The notes under the pieces: generated by a model
Database searches by the model: none
Told to the model about the DNA's origin: nothing
What the model saw: the letters and a program-made list of their open reading frames with translations, nothing else
Origin: Patescibacteria group bacterium
Lineage (GTDB): Bacteria > Patescibacteriota > Patescibacteriia > UBA9934
Reading direction: 5' to 3'
Assembly: GCA_018062825.1 (NCBI GenBank)
Contig: JAGORL010000004.1
Location: 7,409-71,408 of the forward strand
DNA: 64,000 bases
Shown: positions 6,991 to 61,440 of the stretch, piece by piece
How the letters are laid out: the number at the start of each line of letters is the position of its first letter
How positions within the stretch are numbered: position 1 is the first letter of the stretch
Made by a program: the position numbers and the translations under genes

Positions 6991-8727
6991 CGCTTTTGGT
7001 AATTGAGAAGCGCTGACAGCTTGACTGATCAACTGATCAGCTGCAATCACCAGCGACTCCTCCTTGCCGTACACCTTCACTTGGAAATCACCCCCTTCAG
7101 CTTCCTTGGCGCCGATAACGATCGTCCACGGCACCTTCTGCATCGCAGCATCACGAATCTTCTTACCAACCTTCTCAGAGGCATCATCAAGCTTCACGCG
7201 AATACCCGCAGTGCGAAGTGAAGACACGATCTTTTGAGCAGCTGGAATGTAATCATCGGAAACAGTAGCAATGCGCACCTGCTCAGGCGCTAACCAAAAC
7301 GGAAACGCTCCCGCAAGATGCTCAATGATAACGGAAGTGAAGCGCTCAATAGAACCCATGATCGCACAGTGGATCATAAGAATTCCCTCCTTCTCACCCT
7401 TCTCATTCACACACTCCAAGCCAAAATTCTTTGGTTGATTAAAATCGAGCTGAATAGTCGCTACCTGATGCGTTCGACCAATGGCGTCGTTAGCCATAAA
7501 GTCGATCTTAGGGCCATAAAAAGCCGCTTCACCCGGTCCATCAACCCACTCCACACCCTTCTCGGTCAAAATATCGCGAAGCGCGGCCTCAGCCTTATCC
7601 CAGTCCTCCGGAGCGCCTAAGTACTTTTGCGGCTGTTCTGGGTCACGTAAAGACAATCGTGGCTTCAAAGAGAAACCAAAAGCGCCATAGAACGTCTGAA
7701 TGATTCCCCAAATAATTTCCGCCTCCTGACGCACCTGTGATACTCGGCAAAAAACGTGCGCATCATCTTGAGTGATAGAAAGCACGCGTGATAAACCGGA
7801 AAGCTCCCCAGACTGCTCATCTCGGTACACCATCGTTGTTTCCGCGTAACGTATTGGTAATTCACGATATGAGTGCTGCTCGCTCGCATAAATCTGCGCA
7901 TGGTGCGGACAGTTCATCGGTTTCATGGCAAATACATGGCCCTCACGTGTTTCGATCTTAAACAGATCTTCAGCATACTTTGCCCAGTGACCAGAAGTCT
8001 CATACAGATCCTTCTTGGTGATGTGCGGGATAGCTACTCGTTCATAGCCGTACGGTCTACGCAGCTCCCAAACAAACTGATTAAGCACTTCACGAATAAC
8101 GGTTCCCTTTGGAGTCCAAAGTGGTAAACCCGGACCAACAAGATCGGAAAAAACAAAGAGTCCGAGCTCTTTGCCAAGCTTGCGATGATCACGTCGCTTT
8201 GCTTCTTCAAGCATGGTCAAGTGAGCCTCAAGCTCCGTCTTTGTTTCAAAAGCTAAACCGTAAATACGAGTAAGTTGATCATTCTTCTCGTCACCGCGCC
8301 AATATGCGCCGGCCACCTTGGTGAGCTTAAACGAATCTGGATCAATGCCTGCCAAACCTTCACTATGACCACCTCGGCAAAGATCAACAAATTTTCCGGA
8401 AGTATACAAGGACAACGTCTGACCATCCTTAGCAAACTCATTAATAAGCTCAAGCTTGTACTTATTATCCGCAAAAACAGTACGCGCCTCATCCGCATGC
8501 ACCTCATTTCGCTCAAAAGCTTTAAATGTTGGTAAAAGCTTACGCATGCGCTTCTCAATCTTAGGAAGCGCATCTTCTGAAAGCGGTTCGGTAAAGTAAA
8601 AATCGTAATAAAAACCGTTTTCAATCGCAGGACCAATCGTGCGCTTAGCATCTGGATACAGCTCCAAAACTGCGGCCGCCAGAAGATGCGCCAATGAATG
8701 TCGACGGTGTTCAAGATCGTGGCTCAT
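6988..8727 (-). CDS. thrS: threonine--tRNA ligase, short form lacking the N-terminal TGS/N1 domain (ATG at 8727; track start 8850 is a GTG extension through the leader)
   Basis: MSHDLEHRRHSLAHLLAAAVLELYPDAKRTIGPAIENGFYYDFYF matches the N2/editing-domain start of ThrRS. The class II core and anticodon-binding domain follow. 580 aa. Confidence 0.9.
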   Translation of the reverse strand: MSHDLEHRRHSLAHLLAAAVLELYPDAKRTIGPAIENGFYYDFYFTEPLSEDALPKIEKRMRKLLPTFKAFERNEVHADEARTVFADNKYKLELINEFAKDGQTLSLYTSGKFVDLCRGGHSEGLAGIDPDSFKLTKVAGAYWRGDEKNDQLTRIYGLAFETKTELEAHLTMLEEAKRRDHRKLGKELGLFVFSDLVGPGLPLWTPKGTVIREVLNQFVWELRRPYGYERVAIPHITKKDLYETSGHWAKYAEDLFKIETREGHVFAMKPMNCPHHAQIYASEQHSYRELPIRYAETTMVYRDEQSGELSGLSRVLSITQDDAHVFCRVSQVRQEAEIIWGIIQTFYGAFGFSLKPRLSLRDPEQPQKYLGAPEDWDKAEAALRDILTEKGVEWVDGPGEAAFYGPKIDFMANDAIGRTHQVATIQLDFNQPKNFGLECVNEKGEKEGILMIHCAIMGSIERFTSVIIEHLAGAFPFWLAPEQVRIATVSDDYIPAAQKIVSSLRTAGIRVKLDDASEKVGKKIRDAAMQKVPWTIVIGAKEAEGGDFQVKVYGKEESLVIAADQLISQAVSASQLPKA

Positions 8728-8917
8728 ACAATGGAAATAAAAATAGCCGAATACCCCTCCATGGGGATTCGGCCGGGCTCCAAAACAACGTTCGGAGGGT
8801 TCCACCCGGGTTGTAATAGGGATGTCTCCCCTATCACCACTCAATGACACCTAATAAACAAGTAGGTGCGACCTGTTCGCTCCTGGGGCGGTACTCCCAT
8901 TCATCGCGAATATTTGT
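8728..8917 (-). promoter_or_regulatory. T-box-like leader RNA of thrS (stem III, antiterminator with UGGAACC bulge, intrinsic terminator)
   Basis: Minus-strand RNA: ..AUAGGGgagacaUCCCUAU uacaa CCCGGG UGGAACC CUCC gaacguuguuuu GGAG CCCGG ccgaaucccc.., giving helix A1, the 7-nt bulge UGGNACC and helix A2. Then comes hairpin GCCGAAUCCCC-AUGGA-GGGGUAUUCGGC followed by UAUUUUUAUUU, about 8 nt before the ATG. A Thr codon candidate ACC/ACU lies in GCACCUACUUG. Confidence 0.5.
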
Positions 8918-8945
8918 ACTATAGCTTAACGACAACCGTTGTCAA
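8918..8945 (-). promoter_or_regulatory. sigma70-type promoter of the thrS leader (TTGACA-N16-TATAGT)
   Basis: Minus-strand read ttgacaacggttgtcgttaagctatagt. The leader length to the ATG is about 190 nt. Confidence 0.5.
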
Positions 8946-9017
8946 AACATTGACAAAACAGCAAAAATGTGATATGATTCTTCTTGTACCCAAAAAATGT
9001 TATTAGGCTAACATTAA

Positions 9018-9048
9018 ACAAAAAATCGGCTTTTCAGCCGGTTTTTTG
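9018..9048 (-). terminator. intrinsic terminator after gene 9049-10227
   Basis: aaaaaaTCGGCTtttcAGCCGGttttttg. On the minus strand it reads CCGGCUgaaaAGCCGA followed by UUUUUU, immediately after the stop. Confidence 0.55.
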
Positions 9049-10227
9049 TTATTTTGCAGCCTCAATAGTAATGCGCACATGATCAGCTAAACTTGGCACG
9101 CGCTGTAGCCAAAATGGTGTAAAACTCACATGAACATCACTTACCGCTTCACTTGCTCTAAGAAGCGTTTCAACCTCTTTAGCGGAACGCCCCAAGAAAC
9201 GATCCTTAGCTACGATGGCAGCATCCTCAGAGAGTAAAGCGACGCCATCAAGGTACGCCTGCACACGAGCCGTCTTATTTGCCACACTAAATTCCAAGAC
9301 CTCCATTTGAAGCGCATCAAGCTGCTCATCAATGAGCTTAAAGCCATCAGGCAACTGCTCCTGAAGGCGCATGGTAGCCACGCTACCCACCGCTTCTTTA
9401 TCAAAGTACACCACAGCAACACGTGCACGCATGGTAAGCGTAAATGCGCCTGCCTCAGTACCAATCTGCGTATCAGTACCCTGTGAAAGAATCTCAATAT
9501 CAAAAGCCTCGCCCTCAAGACCAGCCCGATCAACATCAGCCTGTAACTGCGCCTTTGCCTCCGCAAGTAATTCAGTCTGCAAAGCGGAAGAAGCATCAGC
9601 GACATCAGATTCAGTAAGGGTACGCACATACTGCACACCTCCAACCATCGGCGCACTACTTACTCCAACAATAGACTGCTGAAGCGTGGGGTTAAGTCCA
9701 GGAATGGTAAATGTACCTGCCGGAATCTCGCCAGCCTTTCCCGCCTGATCTGCGATGGCATACGCCTCAACCTGACCATTAGCAGGAACGGTGACAAAGT
9801 CACGCAAGCGAAAAAGGACTCCTGTTTCAGAAAGTAAACGAGTAGTAGCCACAAGCGGTTGATCACCATTTGTGCCGTTAACAAGCGTCACGTAACCACC
9901 AGCCTTCTGCTCAACTGCCCGAGCGCCATCTGCCGGTAAAATAAAGAGTCGTGATCGATCAAGGGTAATCTCGTTTACAATACCTCGAATATCATTGGTG
10001 TCCTGAGGAGCTGCGACAACGTCAGCAAAGGCGTTCACCGAGATGGTCTTTGGTTCACTAATAACTTTAATCGTTGCCCTGGAAATAGAGAGGTAAACAA
10101 CACCTATCAAAAGCAAGAAAGCAACCGCCACGAAGCCCACAGCAATGCGTTGATACAAACGCAAAGAACGAGAAAGTGGTCTACTCCCCGCTTCAGACCG
10201 CGTGCGTACTGTCTTTACCATACGCAA
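9049..10227 (-). CDS. hypothetical membrane-anchored protein (single N-terminal TM, large extracytoplasmic domain), co-transcribed downstream of dnaE
   Basis: 392 aa. The hydrophobic segment IAVGFVAVAFLLLIGVVYLSI is followed by a long Ala/Thr/Gly/Val-rich domain. It lies 15 nt after the dnaE stop. Confidence 0.55.
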   Translation of the reverse strand: MRMVKTVRTRSEAGSRPLSRSLRLYQRIAVGFVAVAFLLLIGVVYLSISRATIKVISEPKTISVNAFADVVAAPQDTNDIRGIVNEITLDRSRLFILPADGARAVEQKAGGYVTLVNGTNGDQPLVATTRLLSETGVLFRLRDFVTVPANGQVEAYAIADQAGKAGEIPAGTFTIPGLNPTLQQSIVGVSSAPMVGGVQYVRTLTESDVADASSALQTELLAEAKAQLQADVDRAGLEGEAFDIEILSQGTDTQIGTEAGAFTLTMRARVAVVYFDKEAVGSVATMRLQEQLPDGFKLIDEQLDALQMEVLEFSVANKTARVQAYLDGVALLSEDAAIVAKDRFLGRSAKEVETLLRASEAVSDVHVSFTPFWLQRVPSLADHVRITIEAAK

Positions 10228-34340: not shown

Positions 34341-34417
34341 TGGTGCGCCCGGCACGATTCGAACGTACGACCCTCAGCTCCGCAAGCTGATGCTCTATCC
34401 AGCTGAGCTACGGGCGC
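34341..34417 (-). tRNA. tRNA-Arg; anticodon read as GCG from the loop UUGCGGA
   Basis: Minus-strand sequence GCGCCCGTAGCTCAGCTGGATAGAGCATCAGCTTGCGGAGCTGAGGGTCGTACGTTCGAATCGTGCCGGGCGCACCA forms a full cloverleaf with CCA encoded. Confidence 0.85.
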
Positions 34418-52434: not shown

Positions 52435-55400
52435 CTACTCACGCGAAACCGTAATCACGCCATCGTAATACACCCAAGGAGAAATGATCCCATCGTAGTC
52501 TGAATATTCATCGTAAGAACATTCAGCGGTAGAATCCGAAGGACTTAATAAGCTATTTCCACCACCATCAAAACATCCCTCTCGCCCATCGAGACCTGGA
52601 TCGCAACTACCCGTACACCATCCCCAGTTATCACGCACGTGAACTCGAGGCTGGAAGGTACACTGCGCATCAAGACCAGGATTTGTCACACATGGGCTAG
52701 CGTCCAAGATACCGTCACCGTCATCATCTGAACAAACCGGCGCAGTCTGAATGATGTCAGACGTACAGGTATAGATGTGATTGTACGATAGATAGTTTGG
52801 ATCACAGCTCTCATCAGTGAGGCCCCATTCGCTAGCAAGGTCACAGCGGCTAACGGTTGTATTGTTCTGCAAACCACGGTGGTTCTTGTAGAAGTTGTCA
52901 TCGGCATCCGAACCGCTTTCAATGCCATCACCCCAATCAATGATAATACGACGAAGTGGCAATTGATTCTTATCTGCTGCCGCATAGAACTTCAGGTTGG
53001 CGCGGTAGAACTTGATAGCCGAGATATTTCCGCCATCCTGGGTATTGATGGTAAAGGCATTCTCTTGATTCTCAGCACACTCCGTACCAGAACAGTTGTT
53101 CATGTCGAGTGACCAGATCTTGGGAGGAACACCTGAAGTACCACGAATGTCCCAGTCGAGCCCAACATCTGAAGGCTCCTCAACACCATCCTCATAGGAA
53201 CCAAGCGCCTCACCTCCAATGTCGCTTACGGTGAAGTTCGTATCACCGATAACCCAGCTAATTAATCCGGCCGGCTTAGCAAAAAGCTGCTGCAAACGAC
53301 CAATGATATCAGATGCATCTTCCGAGGTAGCCACATCTTCAGAGAATGAACCGAGTGAGTCCCAGGCAAGGAATGGCTTAGCCTGCGAAGACCCTGCACT
53401 GGCGAAAGCTGGCTCAAAATCACCACCCCAGAACGAACAATCTTCTGGGTTGTCAGCATCAGGTACTGGCAACAGGGCTCTCGTTTGAGGTGTGGAATTT
53501 GGATTTGCACATGCTGGAATGACAGCCGGTGTTGGATCTTCCAGATCATTGAATCCACTATTTAAGGTCGGGACAGTAATAGTGCCAGCCCACGGAGTAT
53601 TAATCGTTGCATACTCGTAAACATAGTCGCCAACGGTAATTTGCGATAACGAAGTGCTTTCAGGGTTCAAGACCCGATCTGTCCAAGCATAATTCTGCAC
53701 ATCCGCAACATCAGCCGAGCTACCGAGAATTAAATTCTCACAGGCAGGGTATGTTTCCCAATCCGGTCGCTGCACCGAAGATATATGGAAATCATCACCA
53801 TTAGGATCAAAGCCCTCATTAGAGCCACCATCAGCTAAATCTATAGCCATCGGCCAGGCAAAGAACCCGAGTTCATCCTCAACTACAGAAGAGCCGTAAT
53901 ACGTACAATCTAGATAATTATCCATCAAGATTTGAGCATTATCGTAACCAGCTTCATCTGAAGCAGAAAGGAAGAAATACTCAGTGCGTTCCTCAAAAAG
54001 ACCATTACCAGACGTGACGGAAAAACCAAGATCTTCTTCAGACGGCGTTTCACAAGCGTCCCCATTAGCATGAAACGAATTGTACGGAACACAAACGTAA
54101 GGACAAGCATTAACGGCATCCGTACAAGCTTCAGCGAATGAATTTGTATCCGTACCACCGTTATTCTTAGCTCGTCCACCCACTGCCCAGAATCCCTCAG
54201 GGCATGAAATAGTATGACGACAGTCATCCGATCTCTCAGTATTGATGCTTGCAGGCCTACTCGGAGCATTTAACGGATCTTCGCCGAGACTTTCAGCACA
54301 CGCCGTATAGGAATCAATATTGGCATAACCCCGAATCTCACCACAGTAGTTCAAATCACTAGCAACACCAGCGGTGGTGTACTTAGCAAACAAGTTCGTC
54401 TGACCAGCTAGCTGATCAACCGGTAGCCAAGTAACACAAGCCTGCTCATCACGATCACCATTTATATTGATTGCGCTATCACGCTCCAAACAGTAACCAG
54501 TGATGCCGTACAAATCATCAGCCCGAACAACTGGCTGACAAACGCCACCGCCTGTCTCACAATCACCTTCAGAAATAGCGCTCGAATCCGTAGAGCCAAA
54601 TGAACAGTAAACGTTATCAAACTCACCACCGGAACAAAGACCGATATTTGAGTCAGGGAAACGAGACTCAGTTGAGTAATAACGACTATCCCCTCCCTGC
54701 TGTCCATAACTGACCTTAGTGTAGGAACACAGACATTCCTCACCAGGCGCACACGTATTCACCTGATCAAAACCAGCACGCGTGCTGTACACCGTAGCAT
54801 CAAGGGTTTCGTTATCAATCTCCTCAATAGTGTTCTTAGCCTCTGGATCGTACCAACGCTCAACAACATCAGTAGAGAATGGACTTGTCTTCTCAGGATA
54901 GAGTCGGCACTCAGCAGCCTCAGCAGTTGCGGTATCAAAGGTATTACCATCTGGAGTCAACAAACAACGCTCGTTCAAACAAGTTCCAACCTTGAGCTGA
55001 ATATCTTCAATGAATGATTCGCCAGAACCACAGGAGAGTGTTGGATTGCTTGGTACAAAACTTTCAACCGTCACCGTAGCGCCCGGAGTAGCACATGAAC
55101 CAGCTAAACAGATATCACCCTCGTCACAATCAGCATCAGCGGCACAGAAGTCTGCGGTATCAATGTCGTAACAACCTCCAACAACGCACGTATCCCCTGA
55201 TCCACAGGATGCAGAAGAAGAACAAGCAGCGCCGCTCGTCTCACACACACCAACGCTACAGCTTTCACCAAAGTAGAAACCGTCATTCTCTTCACAGCTA
55301 CCGGCATCAAGCGCTAAACGATAGTCCGGCTTAATGCCTTCAGGAGCACAGTGATTATTCGATGACCCTGCGAATGTTCCAGTGATACCACAATCCGAAT

Positions 55401-58400
55401 CAACTATACACGTGTCACCCTGATTATCATTAAAGACCGTTTGCGTAATATCACCATTAGCAAGCGCTGCTCGCAAATCACACGTCAAAGGCTCTGGGGC
55501 AATATTCGCCTGGGTAAGCGCCTGTACTGGGTACAGGTCAGGAATCGCCATACCAGAATATTCATCGCCGTACCAAGAAACATCACGAGAGGTGTAGCGC
55601 TCTACATCAAGAACGATTTCTGGATCTTCAAAGTTCCAATCATCACAGAATGAAGCGTCACCAAGTGCCGTGTAACCACTACACAATTCAACATCAGAAC
55701 ACACCGTCTTGAATGTTGCGGAGTTCTCATCCCAAACGGTTTCGTAGTTTGCACAAGTTAACCACTCAGAACACTGACGATCACGGTTCACCTTCAAAAG
55801 CGTATTTGTATCGTTTTCAAGGCGATCAACCGGAGCATTCTGAACTCCAAGAGCCGGCGGCGTAACTCGAATCTCAGTCGTACAATCGTACGCCTTAATC
55901 ATTTCACCTGTTTCACTCTCAAGTGGTGAACAGTCACTCACCGAGTAACAAGACGTACCAAGAATCGCTACATCAGAAGCCTCGGTATAAAGACCGCTAT
56001 TACCAGCAGATGTTTCCTGGCTCATCTTCGCAACACGTCCAACGCCATCGGTAATATCAAGCACCTGACCTCGGTCGTACACACAGCGCTGAGCACAAAG
56101 GTCGATCGTTTCCCCACCAACTGTTACCACCTGGGTATTAGAAGCATCACAGTTAATTGGATCAACAAGGGAGTACGGCGCCTGACCAAAGATGACATCC
56201 GCATTCTTGCTTGCCGCCTCGGTGGCAGAAGCGTTGTACAAACGTGAAGACGTACCAGTGTCTAAGAACAAGGCACAGCCCTCCTTCAAAGAGGCTTGAC
56301 CATCGCAACGCTGGCTCGCTGGCAACACGTTCTCATCAAGATTGTCGTTATTCAAGAAAACGTAACTCTCACCATCAGCGTCTGAATACACCTCGTCAGA
56401 ATCAACATCTAATGGATCAAAGTACTCTGTACAGGTGCTGTACTCAGGCTCACACATACCTGCCCAGCCACCAAACTGAGCATCACCATTGCGCCACAAA
56501 CCGGACAATTCCCCGCCTACTAAGTAAGAGGGATCCTGGGTGTTACATGTATCAGCCGCGCCACCCGTACAATCCGCGGTTGAAGAACAGGCATTGCCGC
56601 CAATAGTACATGTGCCGTAACAGAATGAATCAGAACCTTCACGGAACCAACCATCATACGAACTACCAAGAATAGTGACGTCCGTACGGTACTCACAACG
56701 CTGACCTAATGGATTTTTGAAATAATACGTGGTATTCGCGTCATCAGACCAAGCCTCACAGAAAAGCTCATCCTGTTCACAAAGAACCTCATCAAATGTA
56801 TCAGGATCAATCGTGCGATAAACGCTGGCAGCTCCAAGTGTGCTGTTGCGATCCTGAGAGAAAGTCGGAAGACCGATCTCGGTACAACCAGCAGCACCCG
56901 TTGCGCAAGTAACGTCATCCGTTACTACCAGGAAGGCGTCCGTATCAGCCAAAGCTACCTGAGTAGAAGAAGCAAAGGTCAGATGCGCTGTTGATCCCGT
57001 GCTAAGAAGCGAAGTGGATGTATAACCATCGTAATCAAAGGTACAGAAACTAGTACCAACACCGATCGTACACAAGTACTGACTAGTGGTGTCATAAACT
57101 GCACCATTTGATTCGTAGTAACAGGAAGTAGCGGAGGTAGCCGGCAAACCATTTAACGTATTACAACGCAAATTGTGTACCGAAGCATACGGATCCTCGC
57201 TCTCCTGCGTCATGAAAAACGCATCACAACCAACAACGTCATCGGAACAGAGCTTACTAAACGACTTCAAGTAAACCGTTTCATCCTCATGCGTGGAATA
57301 CTCCTGACAACCCAAGTAATACTGCGAGCTAGCAGCGCCCGTTGGCGACTGATCACAAATTGCTGGCGTTGACCAAGAGCCACGAATCAAAGCGAGATTG
57401 TCCTCACCCTCACGAACAGTAAGGTTGTCGATATATGCGGTAGCACTTGGGTCAAAGACAAGAGCCGTACCGGTACCAAAGGCTGCAAAGTCAGCGGCAT
57501 TAAGGTTAGCGGTATCCATCGGGCCAGCGCTAATCTCAGTCCAACCATCTGTGAGCGTAAATGTTCCAAGATCAATATCAATAGCTGTTGAACCATTTGC
57601 TGGCGACAGATCAAAACCAACGCGCACGGTACCCGTACCCTTTGCTAAGAAGCTAATGGTATACGTCTTACCGGAGAACAGTTCATCACTAATCGTTCCA
57701 CAATAGGTCTCGCCCTCAGAAACCACACAAGATCCACCCAAAGGAGATGCCACGGAAGAACATCCGCCATCAGTCGTACAGGTAGAACCGGTGGAATACG
57801 TGTGGGTACGAACAACGTCAGTGAAAACCATGCTCTGACCACCGGTAGCAAGCGATTCGCTACTCAAACTTGCAAATGAAGCGGAAGATGCCTCAAAGGC
57901 ACTCACCGTTCCGTCTTCAAAATTCTCACTAAAGGCGACACGCGAGTTGCGACCACGACCACCCGTATAAGAACGACAACCGTTATCATTATCAGAACAC
58001 TCATCACTCTCCTCTGCTAGCCCAAGGTATCGGCAAGTACCAAGTACCGAATCAAAGTAACCGCCAGACGACTCACAAGAAAGTTCACGCTGTGCGCTTG
58101 TAGCTCCTGCAATATCCGTCTTGCGATAAGCCTGACAAGCTACATCAACAGAGACGGTTTTGCTCCACAATCGATAATGAATACCTCCAGCAGCATCATA
58201 AAACTCACGGCAATCTGGATTGGTGTAAATATCAGCGTTCTCGTCACACGCTGAAGTATCCCAGTCGTAAATACCGTTACCATCTAAATCGATCGCATCA
58301 GAACAGGTCACCCCGTCATCCGTAGCATTCCAGTTAGAACACGGCGCTGCTCCCGGATCTGTATCAGTGCCACCACTAGCGCCATAAGAGTAATCTGCGC

Positions 58401-61400
58401 CACTCAAGCCAGATTCAAGCAAATTCCACTCACGCAATTGGTAACCAGAGGAGTCTGAGCCCTCCCAGGTATAGAAAACCGCTCCCTGATCGCCACCAAT
58501 ATTTGCCGCTGCTTGCTCTGGAGTAACGCAAGATCGAAGGTAAGTGTAATACTCCAACTCTTCAGTCGCAAGATTGGTAAACTCAGAACAGCCAACAGCA
58601 TCTTCTGAACAGGTTTCAGCGGTTGTTGGAATGAAATAAAGCGGGAACTCCCCATCCGGTTCGTAACGAGTTGGTTCTTGCTTATACGTATCGTAACCAG
58701 AACAAATAGACGGACAAGAATCAAGCTCATTGGCAACGCCCGTGATCGTTGGATTGCCATTTGTTGGGCTATACGCCGTACAGCCAACATCATTCTCAGA
58801 ACAAACTTGCGCATACGCTACACACGCCTCAGGATCAGTTGCTGCGCCAGTACAACCTAAATAACTCGGAGCAACCTTGGCAACAACCGTATCAAGTGAC
58901 GCGCTGCTGTAACCAACGGCAAACGTCGAGGCATCTTCACCCTGCTCAACCTGCACGTCATCAATATAGAGATCACCGATAAACTGAATCTCAGCCGTTA
59001 AACGATCCGCAGGATCAGCAAGGACTGGTGCGGTAAAGGTACAAGAAAACCGTTCATAACCAGTTGAGGTCGGAGAGCCACCAAAGCTGACCGTTTCATC
59101 ACCTCCACTTGCGTCATTATCAGCAAAAGAACAATTAGCGCCAGCGCTTGTTCCAGCTAGATCAATAGTAGATCCGGAATCAGAGGTAAAAACAATCGAC
59201 ATCTTAGCTGAAGCACTACCAGTGCTCACTTTTTGACGAGCATAGAAGGATGCTGAGTAGAACGTGCCCTGAGAAAAGGTAACGCCCGGCTGATAAACAG
59301 AACCGGTCGCCGGATTAACGCCAGCCAAGCCGGAACGAGCAAAGACACCCGTCGTATCAGTAACAACCGCCGCGGAAGAAACCATCCAACCATCCGCAAC
59401 GTCATCATTATTTGCATCATCCTCTAAACCTGGATTCTTCAAGATATTCAGGCGTAAATCTGAAGAACGACGTACTAGTTCTCGGCAACCGCCATCTTCT
59501 TCATCACACTCCTCAGCAGCAGATGTAAGGTAGATGCGATCGTCATAAACCTCAGTTGTACTCTCGGTTACCGCTAAATTAGTAACGGCTGGCCAGGCAA
59601 AAGACCCATCTCCTTGAACAACTTTTTGCGTGTCATACCACAAACAACCGGCATTACCTTCAGTACAAGGACCAGGATCAACGGAGTTACGAAGTAAAGA
59701 AATATCTTCACCCTGAGAATCTTCAAGTGTTAAACACGATGCGTACTGTTCAGGGCAGGAATCGCCACGGAAACTCCAGGCATTCTCTTCTCGGACACAA
59801 TAACCAAAGCCACCGATACAATTACCGTTCTCATCCTCATAAATACAACTCGGCATGTCGACACACTCCTCAGAACGAGCATTCGTGCCACTAACCGCCA
59901 AAAGCTGACCGTTACCCTGCATGCGACACTGTGTTTCTGGATATTTCAAAACCCAAGACGGATCAATGAGCTTACACCATGGGTGGTTAGCATCACGCTC
60001 CCCTGCTGTATTACAGTCGTCAAAACCATTAACTACCTGTTGAAGAGTTGGCGCAGTGCCGCTTGTAGCACTCTCAGCAGCCAATTCCCAACCAATAGGA
60101 AGCACACGAGCCTTGCGAAGTTTTACAAGGTTAGTATGACAATAACCGTAGGTATAACAATACGGATCTTGGTTACGAGCCACATCCTGTGAGCCAATAA
60201 GCGGGAATGATCCACGCAAAAGACCCTCTTCAATCGCCTCCTCAACAGTAATCGGCACCCCAGACGCCGCGCGTGCAACAGCGGACAAAAATGACGCATC
60301 CATGACACAGTTATACAAACCGCGATTCGTTGCCGATGGACAGGCAGCAAACTCAGAAAGAATGCTAAAGTTATCAATCTGCGTAGGAGCAGCTGCTAAA
60401 AACGAGCGGTAGGAAGCACGCGCTCCGTCAGCGTTCGATGAATTGATGGAAGCAATATCACCAAATGGATCAGGGATATCCATGTCAAACTTGAAAAGAC
60501 CCTGATAAATTTTCTGAGTAAGCTCAGAAAGAAGCGTGTTGGTAAAAACGGAAGCCGTATGAATACCAACACCTAAAAGCACATCCTGATCACCAAGTGC
60601 ACTAATTGCGAAATTCTTCTTAGTTTCACCCGGCTCATTAAGCTTATTGGCAAGGTCGTCAGCTAAGATATTTGCCGGAGTCTCAACGTTACCCGTAATG
60701 ACGTTCGTAAGATCCTTAAAACCGTTATTCTTAATATGAGCAACCGTCTCGATCTTTGCCTTCTCCAAAGCGTCAGCAATGGCATCATGCTGAATAGTGA
60801 CACCAACCTGAAACTCGTTAACAGTTGGATCATACGCATTTGCCAACTGTGTCAAAATCGTACGATTCTTCAAAAGATTTCCCTCTTCACTTGAAACGTC
60901 AGCAATAAAGCTATCCCAATTTTCAACAATCTCGTTAAATTCACACTGTGGCTCAGGGCGATCAAAAACACCCTGAATACCAAACATGATGGAAAGTCCA
61001 ACGTTAAAACGAGGTGCACACAAATTAAAATCCCCAAGAACGCCACCAAAGCCAGAACTTGCCGCTAACTCTGCCTGAAGTGAACCTACAGCCTCGCCAG
61101 CAACAGCCTGAGCATAATCAGTCCAGTAGTTTCCACCATCTCGACCATCAAAAAGCGGCTCATCCGCAGGACCACCCGCAGCAATAAAAACTGCGGCGTC
61201 GTATGCCAAACGATCAAGCGCAAAAGTAACCGTGTTCATCAAAATCTGAGCAATCGCAATCGATCGAACCTGTTTAGCCGTTAGTTCCGCAGTCTCAATA
61301 GCATCCTCCAAAGCACGAGGAGCATCAGTCAAGGTATTAGCTCCTACAACAAGCTGAGCAGAAGCAATAGTTGGCAGGAAAAAGCTCGTAAAGAGCGCCA

Positions 61401-61440
61401 ATCCTATACTTGCTCGTAAAAATCGATTGATAACACCCAT
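52435..61440 (-). CDS. giant (3001 aa) secreted Cys/Asp/Gly/Thr/Ser-rich surface protein of the secretion locus
   Basis: Single uninterrupted 9-kb ORF with backbone-like composition. N-terminal signal peptide (..LPTIASA-QLVVG). Dozens of Cys and many D-x-D/G-rich segments suggest an extracellular disulfide or calcium-stabilised repeat architecture. Confidence 0.8.
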   Translation of the reverse strand: MGVINRFLRASIGLALFTSFFLPTIASAQLVVGANTLTDAPRALEDAIETAELTAKQVRSIAIAQILMNTVTFALDRLAYDAAVFIAAGGPADEPLFDGRDGGNYWTDYAQAVAGEAVGSLQAELAASSGFGGVLGDFNLCAPRFNVGLSIMFGIQGVFDRPEPQCEFNEIVENWDSFIADVSSEEGNLLKNRTILTQLANAYDPTVNEFQVGVTIQHDAIADALEKAKIETVAHIKNNGFKDLTNVITGNVETPANILADDLANKLNEPGETKKNFAISALGDQDVLLGVGIHTASVFTNTLLSELTQKIYQGLFKFDMDIPDPFGDIASINSSNADGARASYRSFLAAAPTQIDNFSILSEFAACPSATNRGLYNCVMDASFLSAVARAASGVPITVEEAIEEGLLRGSFPLIGSQDVARNQDPYCYTYGYCHTNLVKLRKARVLPIGWELAAESATSGTAPTLQQVVNGFDDCNTAGERDANHPWCKLIDPSWVLKYPETQCRMQGNGQLLAVSGTNARSEECVDMPSCIYEDENGNCIGGFGYCVREENAWSFRGDSCPEQYASCLTLEDSQGEDISLLRNSVDPGPCTEGNAGCLWYDTQKVVQGDGSFAWPAVTNLAVTESTTEVYDDRIYLTSAAEECDEEDGGCRELVRRSSDLRLNILKNPGLEDDANNDDVADGWMVSSAAVVTDTTGVFARSGLAGVNPATGSVYQPGVTFSQGTFYSASFYARQKVSTGSASAKMSIVFTSDSGSTIDLAGTSAGANCSFADNDASGGDETVSFGGSPTSTGYERFSCTFTAPVLADPADRLTAEIQFIGDLYIDDVQVEQGEDASTFAVGYSSASLDTVVAKVAPSYLGCTGAATDPEACVAYAQVCSENDVGCTAYSPTNGNPTITGVANELDSCPSICSGYDTYKQEPTRYEPDGEFPLYFIPTTAETCSEDAVGCSEFTNLATEELEYYTYLRSCVTPEQAAANIGGDQGAVFYTWEGSDSSGYQLREWNLLESGLSGADYSYGASGGTDTDPGAAPCSNWNATDDGVTCSDAIDLDGNGIYDWDTSACDENADIYTNPDCREFYDAAGGIHYRLWSKTVSVDVACQAYRKTDIAGATSAQRELSCESSGGYFDSVLGTCRYLGLAEESDECSDNDNGCRSYTGGRGRNSRVAFSENFEDGTVSAFEASSASFASLSSESLATGGQSMVFTDVVRTHTYSTGSTCTTDGGCSSVASPLGGSCVVSEGETYCGTISDELFSGKTYTISFLAKGTGTVRVGFDLSPANGSTAIDIDLGTFTLTDGWTEISAGPMDTANLNAADFAAFGTGTALVFDPSATAYIDNLTVREGEDNLALIRGSWSTPAICDQSPTGAASSQYYLGCQEYSTHEDETVYLKSFSKLCSDDVVGCDAFFMTQESEDPYASVHNLRCNTLNGLPATSATSCYYESNGAVYDTTSQYLCTIGVGTSFCTFDYDGYTSTSLLSTGSTAHLTFASSTQVALADTDAFLVVTDDVTCATGAAGCTEIGLPTFSQDRNSTLGAASVYRTIDPDTFDEVLCEQDELFCEAWSDDANTTYYFKNPLGQRCEYRTDVTILGSSYDGWFREGSDSFCYGTCTIGGNACSSTADCTGGAADTCNTQDPSYLVGGELSGLWRNGDAQFGGWAGMCEPEYSTCTEYFDPLDVDSDEVYSDADGESYVFLNNDNLDENVLPASQRCDGQASLKEGCALFLDTGTSSRLYNASATEAASKNADVIFGQAPYSLVDPINCDASNTQVVTVGGETIDLCAQRCVYDRGQVLDITDGVGRVAKMSQETSAGNSGLYTEASDVAILGTSCYSVSDCSPLESETGEMIKAYDCTTEIRVTPPALGVQNAPVDRLENDTNTLLKVNRDRQCSEWLTCANYETVWDENSATFKTVCSDVELCSGYTALGDASFCDDWNFEDPEIVLDVERYTSRDVSWYGDEYSGMAIPDLYPVQALTQANIAPEPLTCDLRAALANGDITQTVFNDNQGDTCIVDSDCGITGTFAGSSNNHCAPEGIKPDYRLALDAGSCEENDGFYFGESCSVGVCETSGAACSSSASCGSGDTCVVGGCYDIDTADFCAADADCDEGDICLAGSCATPGATVTVESFVPSNPTLSCGSGESFIEDIQLKVGTCLNERCLLTPDGNTFDTATAEAAECRLYPEKTSPFSTDVVERWYDPEAKNTIEEIDNETLDATVYSTRAGFDQVNTCAPGEECLCSYTKVSYGQQGGDSRYYSTESRFPDSNIGLCSGGEFDNVYCSFGSTDSSAISEGDCETGGGVCQPVVRADDLYGITGYCLERDSAININGDRDEQACVTWLPVDQLAGQTNLFAKYTTAGVASDLNYCGEIRGYANIDSYTACAESLGEDPLNAPSRPASINTERSDDCRHTISCPEGFWAVGGRAKNNGGTDTNSFAEACTDAVNACPYVCVPYNSFHANGDACETPSEEDLGFSVTSGNGLFEERTEYFFLSASDEAGYDNAQILMDNYLDCTYYGSSVVEDELGFFAWPMAIDLADGGSNEGFDPNGDDFHISSVQRPDWETYPACENLILGSSADVADVQNYAWTDRVLNPESTSLSQITVGDYVYEYATINTPWAGTITVPTLNSGFNDLEDPTPAVIPACANPNSTPQTRALLPVPDADNPEDCSFWGGDFEPAFASAGSSQAKPFLAWDSLGSFSEDVATSEDASDIIGRLQQLFAKPAGLISWVIGDTNFTVSDIGGEALGSYEDGVEEPSDVGLDWDIRGTSGVPPKIWSLDMNNCSGTECAENQENAFTINTQDGGNISAIKFYRANLKFYAAADKNQLPLRRIIIDWGDGIESGSDADDNFYKNHRGLQNNTTVSRCDLASEWGLTDESCDPNYLSYNHIYTCTSDIIQTAPVCSDDDGDGILDASPCVTNPGLDAQCTFQPRVHVRDNWGWCTGSCDPGLDGREGCFDGGGNSLLSPSDSTAECSYDEYSDYDGIISPWVYYDGVITVSRE

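Follow-up and report, generated by a model that had tools for sequence, protein, structure and literature searches.

The leader of the threonyl-tRNA synthetase gene (thrS) in the analysed 64-kb stretch of DNA, here called the window, most likely contains a functional threonine-specific T-box riboswitch that represents a minimal subclass found in Patescibacteria; we assign this reading a probability of roughly 0.8. The identification as a T-box and the specificity for threonine are very probable when taken by themselves, and transcription termination is the probable readout in the family. Judging from sequence, the family unites an ultrashort Stem I, the absence of Stem II and a putative transcription terminator. 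The first-pass annotation had proposed a T-box-like attenuator in this leader, with the antiterminator architecture of T-boxes. The T-box reading is borne out by a covariance model match, a modelled Stem I and covariation, while the truncation that sets this subclass apart, i.e. the missing upper part of Stem I, had escaped notice. By its sequence the organism is a member of Patescibacteria, and literature searches pairing T-boxes with CPR or Patescibacteria returned no paper when all terms were required and, with looser terms, none naming a T-box riboswitch among the results listed.

The element and thrS, with all the features described for them below, lie on the minus strand of the window. 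The leader is preceded by a sigma-70-type promoter (8945-8918; TTGACA at 8945-8940, a 16-nt spacer and TATAGT at 8923-8918), which had been predicted in exactly this form and has 11 of 12 consensus matches; in all close relatives the -10 box is placed 21-26 nt 5' of the K-turn GA. The transcript probably starts near 8911, a few nucleotides before Stem I, and the leader preceding the thrS AUG at 8727 measures about 184 nt, close to the earlier estimate of roughly 190 nt; its assignment to the minus strand is a correction. As the gene upstream (10227-9049) is equipped with a terminator (9040-9027) and the thrS promoter follows it, the leader is a separate transcript, and the suggestion that the hairpin before thrS could be just the terminator of an upstream transcript is thereby excluded.

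The thrS gene (8727-6988) encodes a protein of 579 amino acids, 100% identical to a threonine-tRNA ligase of Patescibacteria in NCBI, with the Pfam domains tRNA_SAD, tRNA-synt_2b and HGTP_anticodon; the same length is common among homologs from Patescibacteria. The protein opens directly at the motif HRRHSLAHLL of the second additional (editing-associated) domain and therefore has no N-terminal TGS domain, and its homologs begin at the same residue. No Shine-Dalgarno (SD) sequence precedes the thrS AUG, as had been noted before, nor does one precede thrS of the relatives. An SD-like motif is found before only about 10 of 38 genes (long ORFs) in the window, about 28 of 38 being without it, so the missing SD of thrS is a trait of the genome, a point that the first-pass annotation had missed. 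Many genes of the window carry a TATACT -10-like box 7-12 nt 5' of the ATG (e.g. at 10221, 49189, 62134 and 36139), which suggests that leaderless or very-short-leader mRNAs may be widespread in this organism.

In a set of species-level genomes and a metagenome set the nearest ThrRS was about 64% identical, while a large protein database yielded nearer sequences at 94%, about 80% and 73-77% identity, from which ten loci were fetched (L161-L170). The motif GGUGGAACC recurs 70-255 nt 5' of thrS in more than 20 loci of Patescibacteria and Chloroflexi, and the variable position of the bulge is always A. The Chloroflexi leaders are canonical T-boxes that score 88-94 bits against the Rfam T-box model (RF00230) and have the same UGGA, whereas the thrS leaders of Patescibacteria in the genome and metagenome sets score at most 31 bits. 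The leader of L161 (94% ThrRS identity) is the same as that in the window; L162-L168 (77-82%) share the K-turn, the 4-bp helix and the loop AGUACCGC, and the K-turn and short helix recur in L169 (74%), L045 (Moranbacteria) and L006 (Doudnabacteria), capped there by a 7-nt loop, CUACCAA. In L170 (73%, Uhrbacteria) thrS has no T-box leader. A different 5' domain, located 150-200 nt 5' of the T-box core, characterizes a number of more distant leaders (L001, L003, L059, L084, L093, L094, L096, L099); it consists of CAGAGAUUGUU, a hairpin with the loop CUACCAA, a second hairpin and CCUAAUCUG, shows no obvious K-turn, and again has the specifier in a terminal loop. In L162 (397-759) and L163 (378-731), two relatives at about 81% identity, thrS is separated from the terminator of the T-box by an inserted small gene of the 23S_rRNA_IVP family (four-helix bundle), and there the riboswitch would control a two-gene unit.

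The RF00230 model reports nothing at its gathering score in the window and nothing at E<=10 in the 501-nt region 8600-9100. When only the leader is searched, it returns a full-length alignment (8913-8771) that scores 25.2 bits (E = 4.6e-4), the gathering score being 93. This alignment matches both halves of the K-turn (GCGAUGAAUGGGA...GUA and CCCAGGAGC) and the series AGUG-Stem III-AA-GGGUGGAACC, and it reduces 69 model positions, corresponding to the whole upper Stem I, to 4 nt in the leader; it is because this whole region is missing that the score falls below the cutoff. Two results had been named beforehand as jointly speaking against a T-box, an Infernal score below threshold and the failure to model a Stem I with a Thr specifier; the score is indeed below threshold (25.2 vs 93 bits), while such a Stem I can be modelled. 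We built a covariance model, R1, from L162-L168 only, leaving out the window and L161, with Stem I, A1 and A2 annotated. Searched against both strands of the whole window, R1 gives a single match at 8912-8772 of the minus strand, with 53.1 bits and E ~8e-13, so the element is far beyond chance.

Covariation was scored in a model-based alignment of 12 family members, which is fitted to the model by construction: 97.6% of its cells are standard pairs, and 13 of 18 pairs have changed on both sides, a level reached by none of 500 shuffles, with pairing at 52% or less when the partners are slid. Both-side changes affect 4/6 annotated pairs of Stem I, all six of which are kept, 4/6 of A1 and 5/6 of A2. 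The same three helices are predicted independently by RNAalifold. When whole leaders were aligned with MAFFT, Stem I and Stem III fell out of register, for which reason the model-based alignment was used; Stem III cannot be aligned in columns and was checked by folding each sequence.

The earlier annotation could place no convincing Stem I or specifier. We modelled a short Stem I at 8910-8876, with the specifier ACC and with covariation across the 12 relatives. It consists of a K-turn, a 4-bp helix and the terminal loop AGUACCGC. The K-turn, predicted from the string CGC-GAU-GA ... GA-GCG that matches the Rfam consensus, has the C-stem UUCGC/GCGAA, the bulge GAU and the tandem G.A pairs G8902-A8881 and A8901-G8882; the GA/GA positions do not vary among relatives, and the stems on either side covary. 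The upper helix comprises UGGG (8899-8896) paired with CCCA (8887-8884), and the 8-nt loop occupies 8895-8888. ACC (8892-8890), preceded by U8893 and followed by the purine G8889, is the sole feature common to the AGUACCGC loops of the window and L161-L168 and the CUACCAA loops of L169, L045, L006 and more distant Patescibacteria leaders. Because it stays constant across both loop types, we identify it as the specifier, a Thr codon that would pair with the GGU anticodon of tRNA-Thr. The CUACCAA loop is laid out like an anticodon loop, with U, three bases and two purines. Complementary anticodon-loop complexes are far more stable than the pairing of free trinucleotides, and stability of this type could explain why a loop of 7-8 nt suffices.

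The position of the specifier in a terminal loop departs from the norm for RF00230 T-boxes, in which it lies in an internal loop. According to the Rfam alignment of the leader, a long Stem I with the AG bulge and the distal loop (the elbow-binding IDTM) is absent, and the upper Stem I is truncated also in L161-L169, L045 and L006. The Thr codons that had been proposed as specifier candidates lie in GCACCUACUUG (8869-8859), within a lineage-specific hairpin. We rejected both this segment and the alternative hairpin ACAGGU-CGCACCU-ACUUGU as the site of the specifier, since the insertion is confined to the window and L161 and the L161 changes are not consistently compensatory.

This insertion, which lies in the linker between Stem I and Stem III, forms a 7-bp hairpin, GCACCUA-CUUGUUUAU-UAGGUGU (8869-8847), found in the window and L161 alone; the single L161 change inside it falls in the loop. 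The linker of the relatives is about 15 nt long, unstructured and variable in sequence. A Stem II with an S-turn and a IIA/B pseudoknot are absent: the hairpin in the window has no S-turn, no pseudoknot partner and no purine string. In several of L164-L169 Stem I is followed by a conserved motif, (U/A)CCACAAU; L162 and L163 have a purine-rich stretch in its place, and the window has the hairpin. The idea that CCACAAU imitates the 3' end of tRNA within the leader was dropped, as the motif is missing in L162, L163 and the window.

The 5' part of the discriminator (8842-8811) consists of GAGUG (8842-8838), Stem III (8837-8813) and AA (8812-8811), and corresponds to the defined motif RRRNG (RAG)-Stem III-AA (PMC7778990, PMC11297988). 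Stem III, GUGAUAGGG-GAGACAU-CCCUAUUAC, is a 9-bp hairpin that includes the AUAGGG/CCCUAU stem-loop already seen in the first-pass annotation, where it was not recognised as Stem III with its GAGUG...AA flanks. With the exception of L006, all relatives have at this position a hairpin, unrelated in sequence and followed by AA, and a G.U pair of Stem III in the window is an A-U pair in L161. In L164 (~565-700) and L167 (~555-715) Stem III contains an insertion of about 100-130 nt with repeats of the AAUUAAG(A/G)A type, which folds as a long hairpin (-47 to -55 kcal/mol).

The antiterminator (8810-8773; its helices and bulge at 8809-8773) has the arrangement described before, a UGGAACC bulge between helices A1 and A2. 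A1 is formed by 5 bp, CCGGG (8809-8805) with CCCGG (8777-8773); the 7-nt bulge UGGAACC occupies 8804-8798, within GGGUGGAACC at 8807-8798, and A2 is the 7-bp helix CUCCGAA-CGUUGU-UUUGGAG (8797-8778). The variable base of the bulge is A, which predicts a U73 discriminator on tRNA-Thr. The window contains genes for two tRNA-Ser and one tRNA-Arg and none for tRNA-Thr; a single tRNA-Thr was present among the fetched loci (L130, from another genome), and it ends in U-CCA, in keeping with UGGA. UGGA is common to all of the approximately 25 thrS leaders that contain a T-box core. Among the tRNA genes encountered, tRNA-Arg at 34341-34417 (minus strand) has the anticodon GCG instead of the usual bacterial ACG (inosine) type, and a tRNA-Val(GAC) gene lies directly 5' of thrS in many unrelated lineages (L008, L009, L044, L054, L068, L136, L154 and L159).

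The strong hairpin and U-tract reported before the start codon (8773-8735) are likewise present: the terminator-like hairpin GCCGAAUCCCC-AUGGA-GGGGUAUUCGGC (8773-8746; -17.8 kcal/mol) is followed directly by the U-tract UAUUUUUAUUU (8745-8735), and 18 nt separate the end of the hairpin from the AUG. The two together would act as an intrinsic terminator. The hairpin adjoins A1 and overlaps with the antiterminator in G8773 only, or in two nucleotides if the G8774-U8745 wobble is counted, exactly the single shared nucleotide that had been remarked upon. In the minimum-energy fold of the 3' domain both structures are present together (-30.9 kcal/mol in the window, -27.1 in L161), so in the window there is no thermodynamic switch. 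Thus, terminator and antiterminator are not mutually exclusive in the window and L161, whereas in L162-L168 they are, because the 5' arm of the terminator (e.g. GCCCGACG) includes the 3' strand of A1. The fold evidence comes from unconstrained folds only, as hard constraints forcing the antiterminator were not fully enforced in some relatives. Alternative pairings were considered and rejected. The alternative antiterminator CCCUCC (8800-8795) x GGAGGG (8759-8754) is reduced to 5 bp, ACCCU x GGGGU, by deletion of GGAG in L161, and the long-range pairings GGUGGAA x UUCCAUU and AAUGGGAGUA x UAUUUCCAUU, which appear in minimum-energy folds, have partners that are not conserved in L161.

Comparison of the window with L161 shows that selection has acted on the leader. 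The two sequences differ at 130 of 248 four-fold sites of thrS (52%) and at 19 of 190 positions of the leader (10%). There are no differences in Stem I (0/40), one in the 5' strand of A1 and the bulge (1/13) and none in the 3' strand of A1 (0/5); the L161 changes in A2 keep the helix, and the 3' arm of the terminator and the U-tract are identical, while the hairpin loop is not conserved. As changes are far fewer than at neutral sites, both the sensor and the adjoining hairpin are under purifying selection, and the non-overlapping platform of the window and L161 is, on this pattern of substitutions, not a product of decay.

The features shared with canonical transcriptional T-boxes (RF00230; e.g. 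tyrS and thrS of B. subtilis, and L068 and L031 from Chloroflexi) are the location in the leader of an aminoacyl-tRNA synthetase gene, the basal K-turn, the specifier followed by a purine, RAG/RRRNG-Stem III-AA, the UGGNACC bulge between A1 and A2, and a hairpin with a U-tract, which in close relatives is an overlapping terminator. Unlike them, the present element has a Stem I that ends just above the K-turn helix, without the S-turn specifier internal loop, AG bulge, distal loop and IDTM; it has neither Stem II nor the IIA/B pseudoknot, and in the window its terminator does not compete with the antiterminator. Transcriptional T-boxes generally need a long Stem I with an elbow-binding IDTM (PMC7583486). 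Intermediate or "ultrashort" forms of Stem I are found in translational T-boxes of Actinobacteria, and Stem II is then essential; truncated Stem I RNAs barely bind tRNA without it. In the current structural view, pairing with the anticodon is by itself too weak and has to be reinforced, either by a Stem I platform contacting the tRNA elbow or by the S-turn of Stem II (PMC7583486). The lack of both the IDTM and Stem II counts against the present element being a functional T-box, as do its Rfam score far below the cutoff and, in the window, the coexistence of antiterminator and terminator in the minimum-energy fold.

To the extent that the short-Stem-I ileS T-boxes of Actinobacteria (Sherwood et al. 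2015, as cited in PMC7583486; structures from M. tuberculosis and N. farcinica) are described there, they resemble our element in the natural truncation of Stem I, the lack of an elbow platform, the retained K-turn and the canonical discriminator; they differ from it in that the element described here has no Stem II domain and no SD, possesses a terminator with a U-tract, is directed to Thr rather than Ile and comes from another phylum. The compensation by Stem II that accompanies an ultrashort Stem I is thus not found here despite the truncation, and instead of an SD sequestrator/anti-sequestrator platform there is a hairpin with a U-tract. Glycine T-boxes of the glyQS type, the one class otherwise lacking Stem II and the IIA/B pseudoknot, also have no Stem II domain, a single-stranded linker between Stem I and Stem III, and control by transcription termination. 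In contrast to our element, however, the Stem I of glyQS is long and carries an IDTM stacking against the elbow of the tRNA, a part wholly missing here, and the linker in the window has an additional plain hairpin that glyQS does not.

The following mechanism can be proposed, in which tRNA binding and its effect on termination are predictions by analogy with characterised T-boxes. The 8-nt loop of Stem I would present U-ACC-G to the GGU anticodon of tRNA-Thr, and the linker would then lead to the discriminator, i.e. GAGUG, Stem III, AA and A1/UGGAACC/A2. UGGA of the bulge would pair with the free 3'-UCCA of uncharged tRNA-Thr, thereby locking the antiterminator. In relatives with 77-82% ThrRS identity the locked antiterminator would prevent the overlapping terminator from forming, which amounts to a classical switch. 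In the lineage of the window two variants may be envisaged: a tRNA-locked A1 could withhold G8773/G8774 and hence the bottom pairs of the terminator beside the U-tract, such bottom pairs of the terminator stem being critical for termination, or the bulky tRNA-RNA complex could sterically hinder completion of the adjoining, spacer-less hairpin. That either of these couples sensor and terminator in the window is plausible, although we would give it slightly less than even odds. The strongest form of the proposal can be put forward only tentatively, namely that this is the smallest natural T-box, which reads tRNA-Thr co-transcriptionally by an anticodon-loop-like loop on a K-turn and an NCCA-binding discriminator, with neither elbow platform nor Stem II, and in this lineage controls its terminator without strand competition.

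Coupling is the point disputed by the first of the rival explanations, according to which the element of the window and L161 is a decoupled relic: the sensor would control nothing and be kept by inertia, and the hairpin would be a constitutive leaky attenuator or a 5' structure that stabilises the RNA. The coexistence of antiterminator and terminator, which do not compete, fits this idea, and so does A1, now a stronger helix of five G-C pairs that would fold even in the absence of tRNA. The substitutions tell against it: 0/40 in Stem I and 1/18 in A1 plus bulge against 52% at neutral sites, with changes in Stem III and A2 that keep pairing, a pattern indicating that the parts in contact with tRNA were under purifying selection once the platform had been rearranged. 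We therefore regard a relic as unlikely. A further step down in probability comes translational control, as in actinobacterial ileS, in which either the hairpin 8773-8746, or UUCCAUU near the AUG by pairing with GGUGGAA of the core or with the 5' end, would gate ribosomes until tRNA relieves the block. The short distance of 18 nt between the hairpin and the AUG would suit such a role, the minimum-energy fold of the full leader pairs 8901-8892 with 8740-8731 and CCGCCC with GGGUGG, and local structure could matter in a genome in which initiation is mostly SD-less. There is, however, no SD or anti-SD to sequester, the partners UUCCAUU and UAUUUCCAUU are changed to UUCUAUA in L161 without compensation, and the hairpin has a U-tract, as do the bona fide terminators of the relatives. 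Both explanations are less likely than a T-box with a coupled terminator.

The possibility that the leader is no riboswitch at all appears very remote. Besides the terminator of an upstream transcript, contradicted by the terminator at 9040-9027 and the promoter that follows it, it could then be a Thr leader-peptide attenuator of the RF00506 type or an operator of the E. coli ThrRS type that mimics the anticodon arm of tRNA-Thr. A 12-codon uORF (8762-8724; MEGYSAIFISIV*) does begin in the loop of the hairpin, and its end overlaps the start of thrS as AUGA, but Thr codons are absent from it and L161 has lost its AUG by deletion, for which reasons we rejected it as a leader peptide. The A2 loop CGUUGU contains CGU and UGU, as an operator might, but it is UUUA in L161, and what the conserved loop of Stem I displays is a codon, ACC, rather than an anticodon. 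Core, K-turn and covariation all favor the T-box.

T-boxes serve as the textbook example of an RNA sensing which tRNA is present and whether it is charged. A selected family with neither the elbow platform nor Stem II, yet with terminators, would define the minimal requirements of tRNA sensing and, if the proposal made here is true, would overturn the rule by which a long Stem I is required in transcriptional T-boxes and Stem II in the short forms, besides adding a new mode of coupling between sensor and terminator. The conserved, adjoining and non-competing terminator would be a test case for riboswitch control of termination without strand exchange, and a minimal T-box would offer a scaffold of about 130-140 nt for structural and synthetic work. 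Standard annotation misses the T-boxes of Patescibacteria, because their scores of 20-50 bits lie below the Rfam cutoff of 93, and regulation is otherwise poorly known in these reduced genomes.

Two further observations concern other parts of the window. On the plus strand a strong divergent promoter-like site (8950-8978: TTGACA, a 17-nt spacer and TATGAT, with an upstream TG) faces a bidirectional terminator at about 9027-9050; the transcript expected from the region 8946-9056 would be about 70 nt long. A search of this region (plus strand) against Rfam found no family above the gathering score. The spacer 8946-9056 is about 88-90% identical in L161, compared with 52% differences at neutral sites, the promoter hexamers are kept, and the region may encode a small RNA. 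On the minus strand, a single ORF of about 3001 amino acids extends over 52434-61440.
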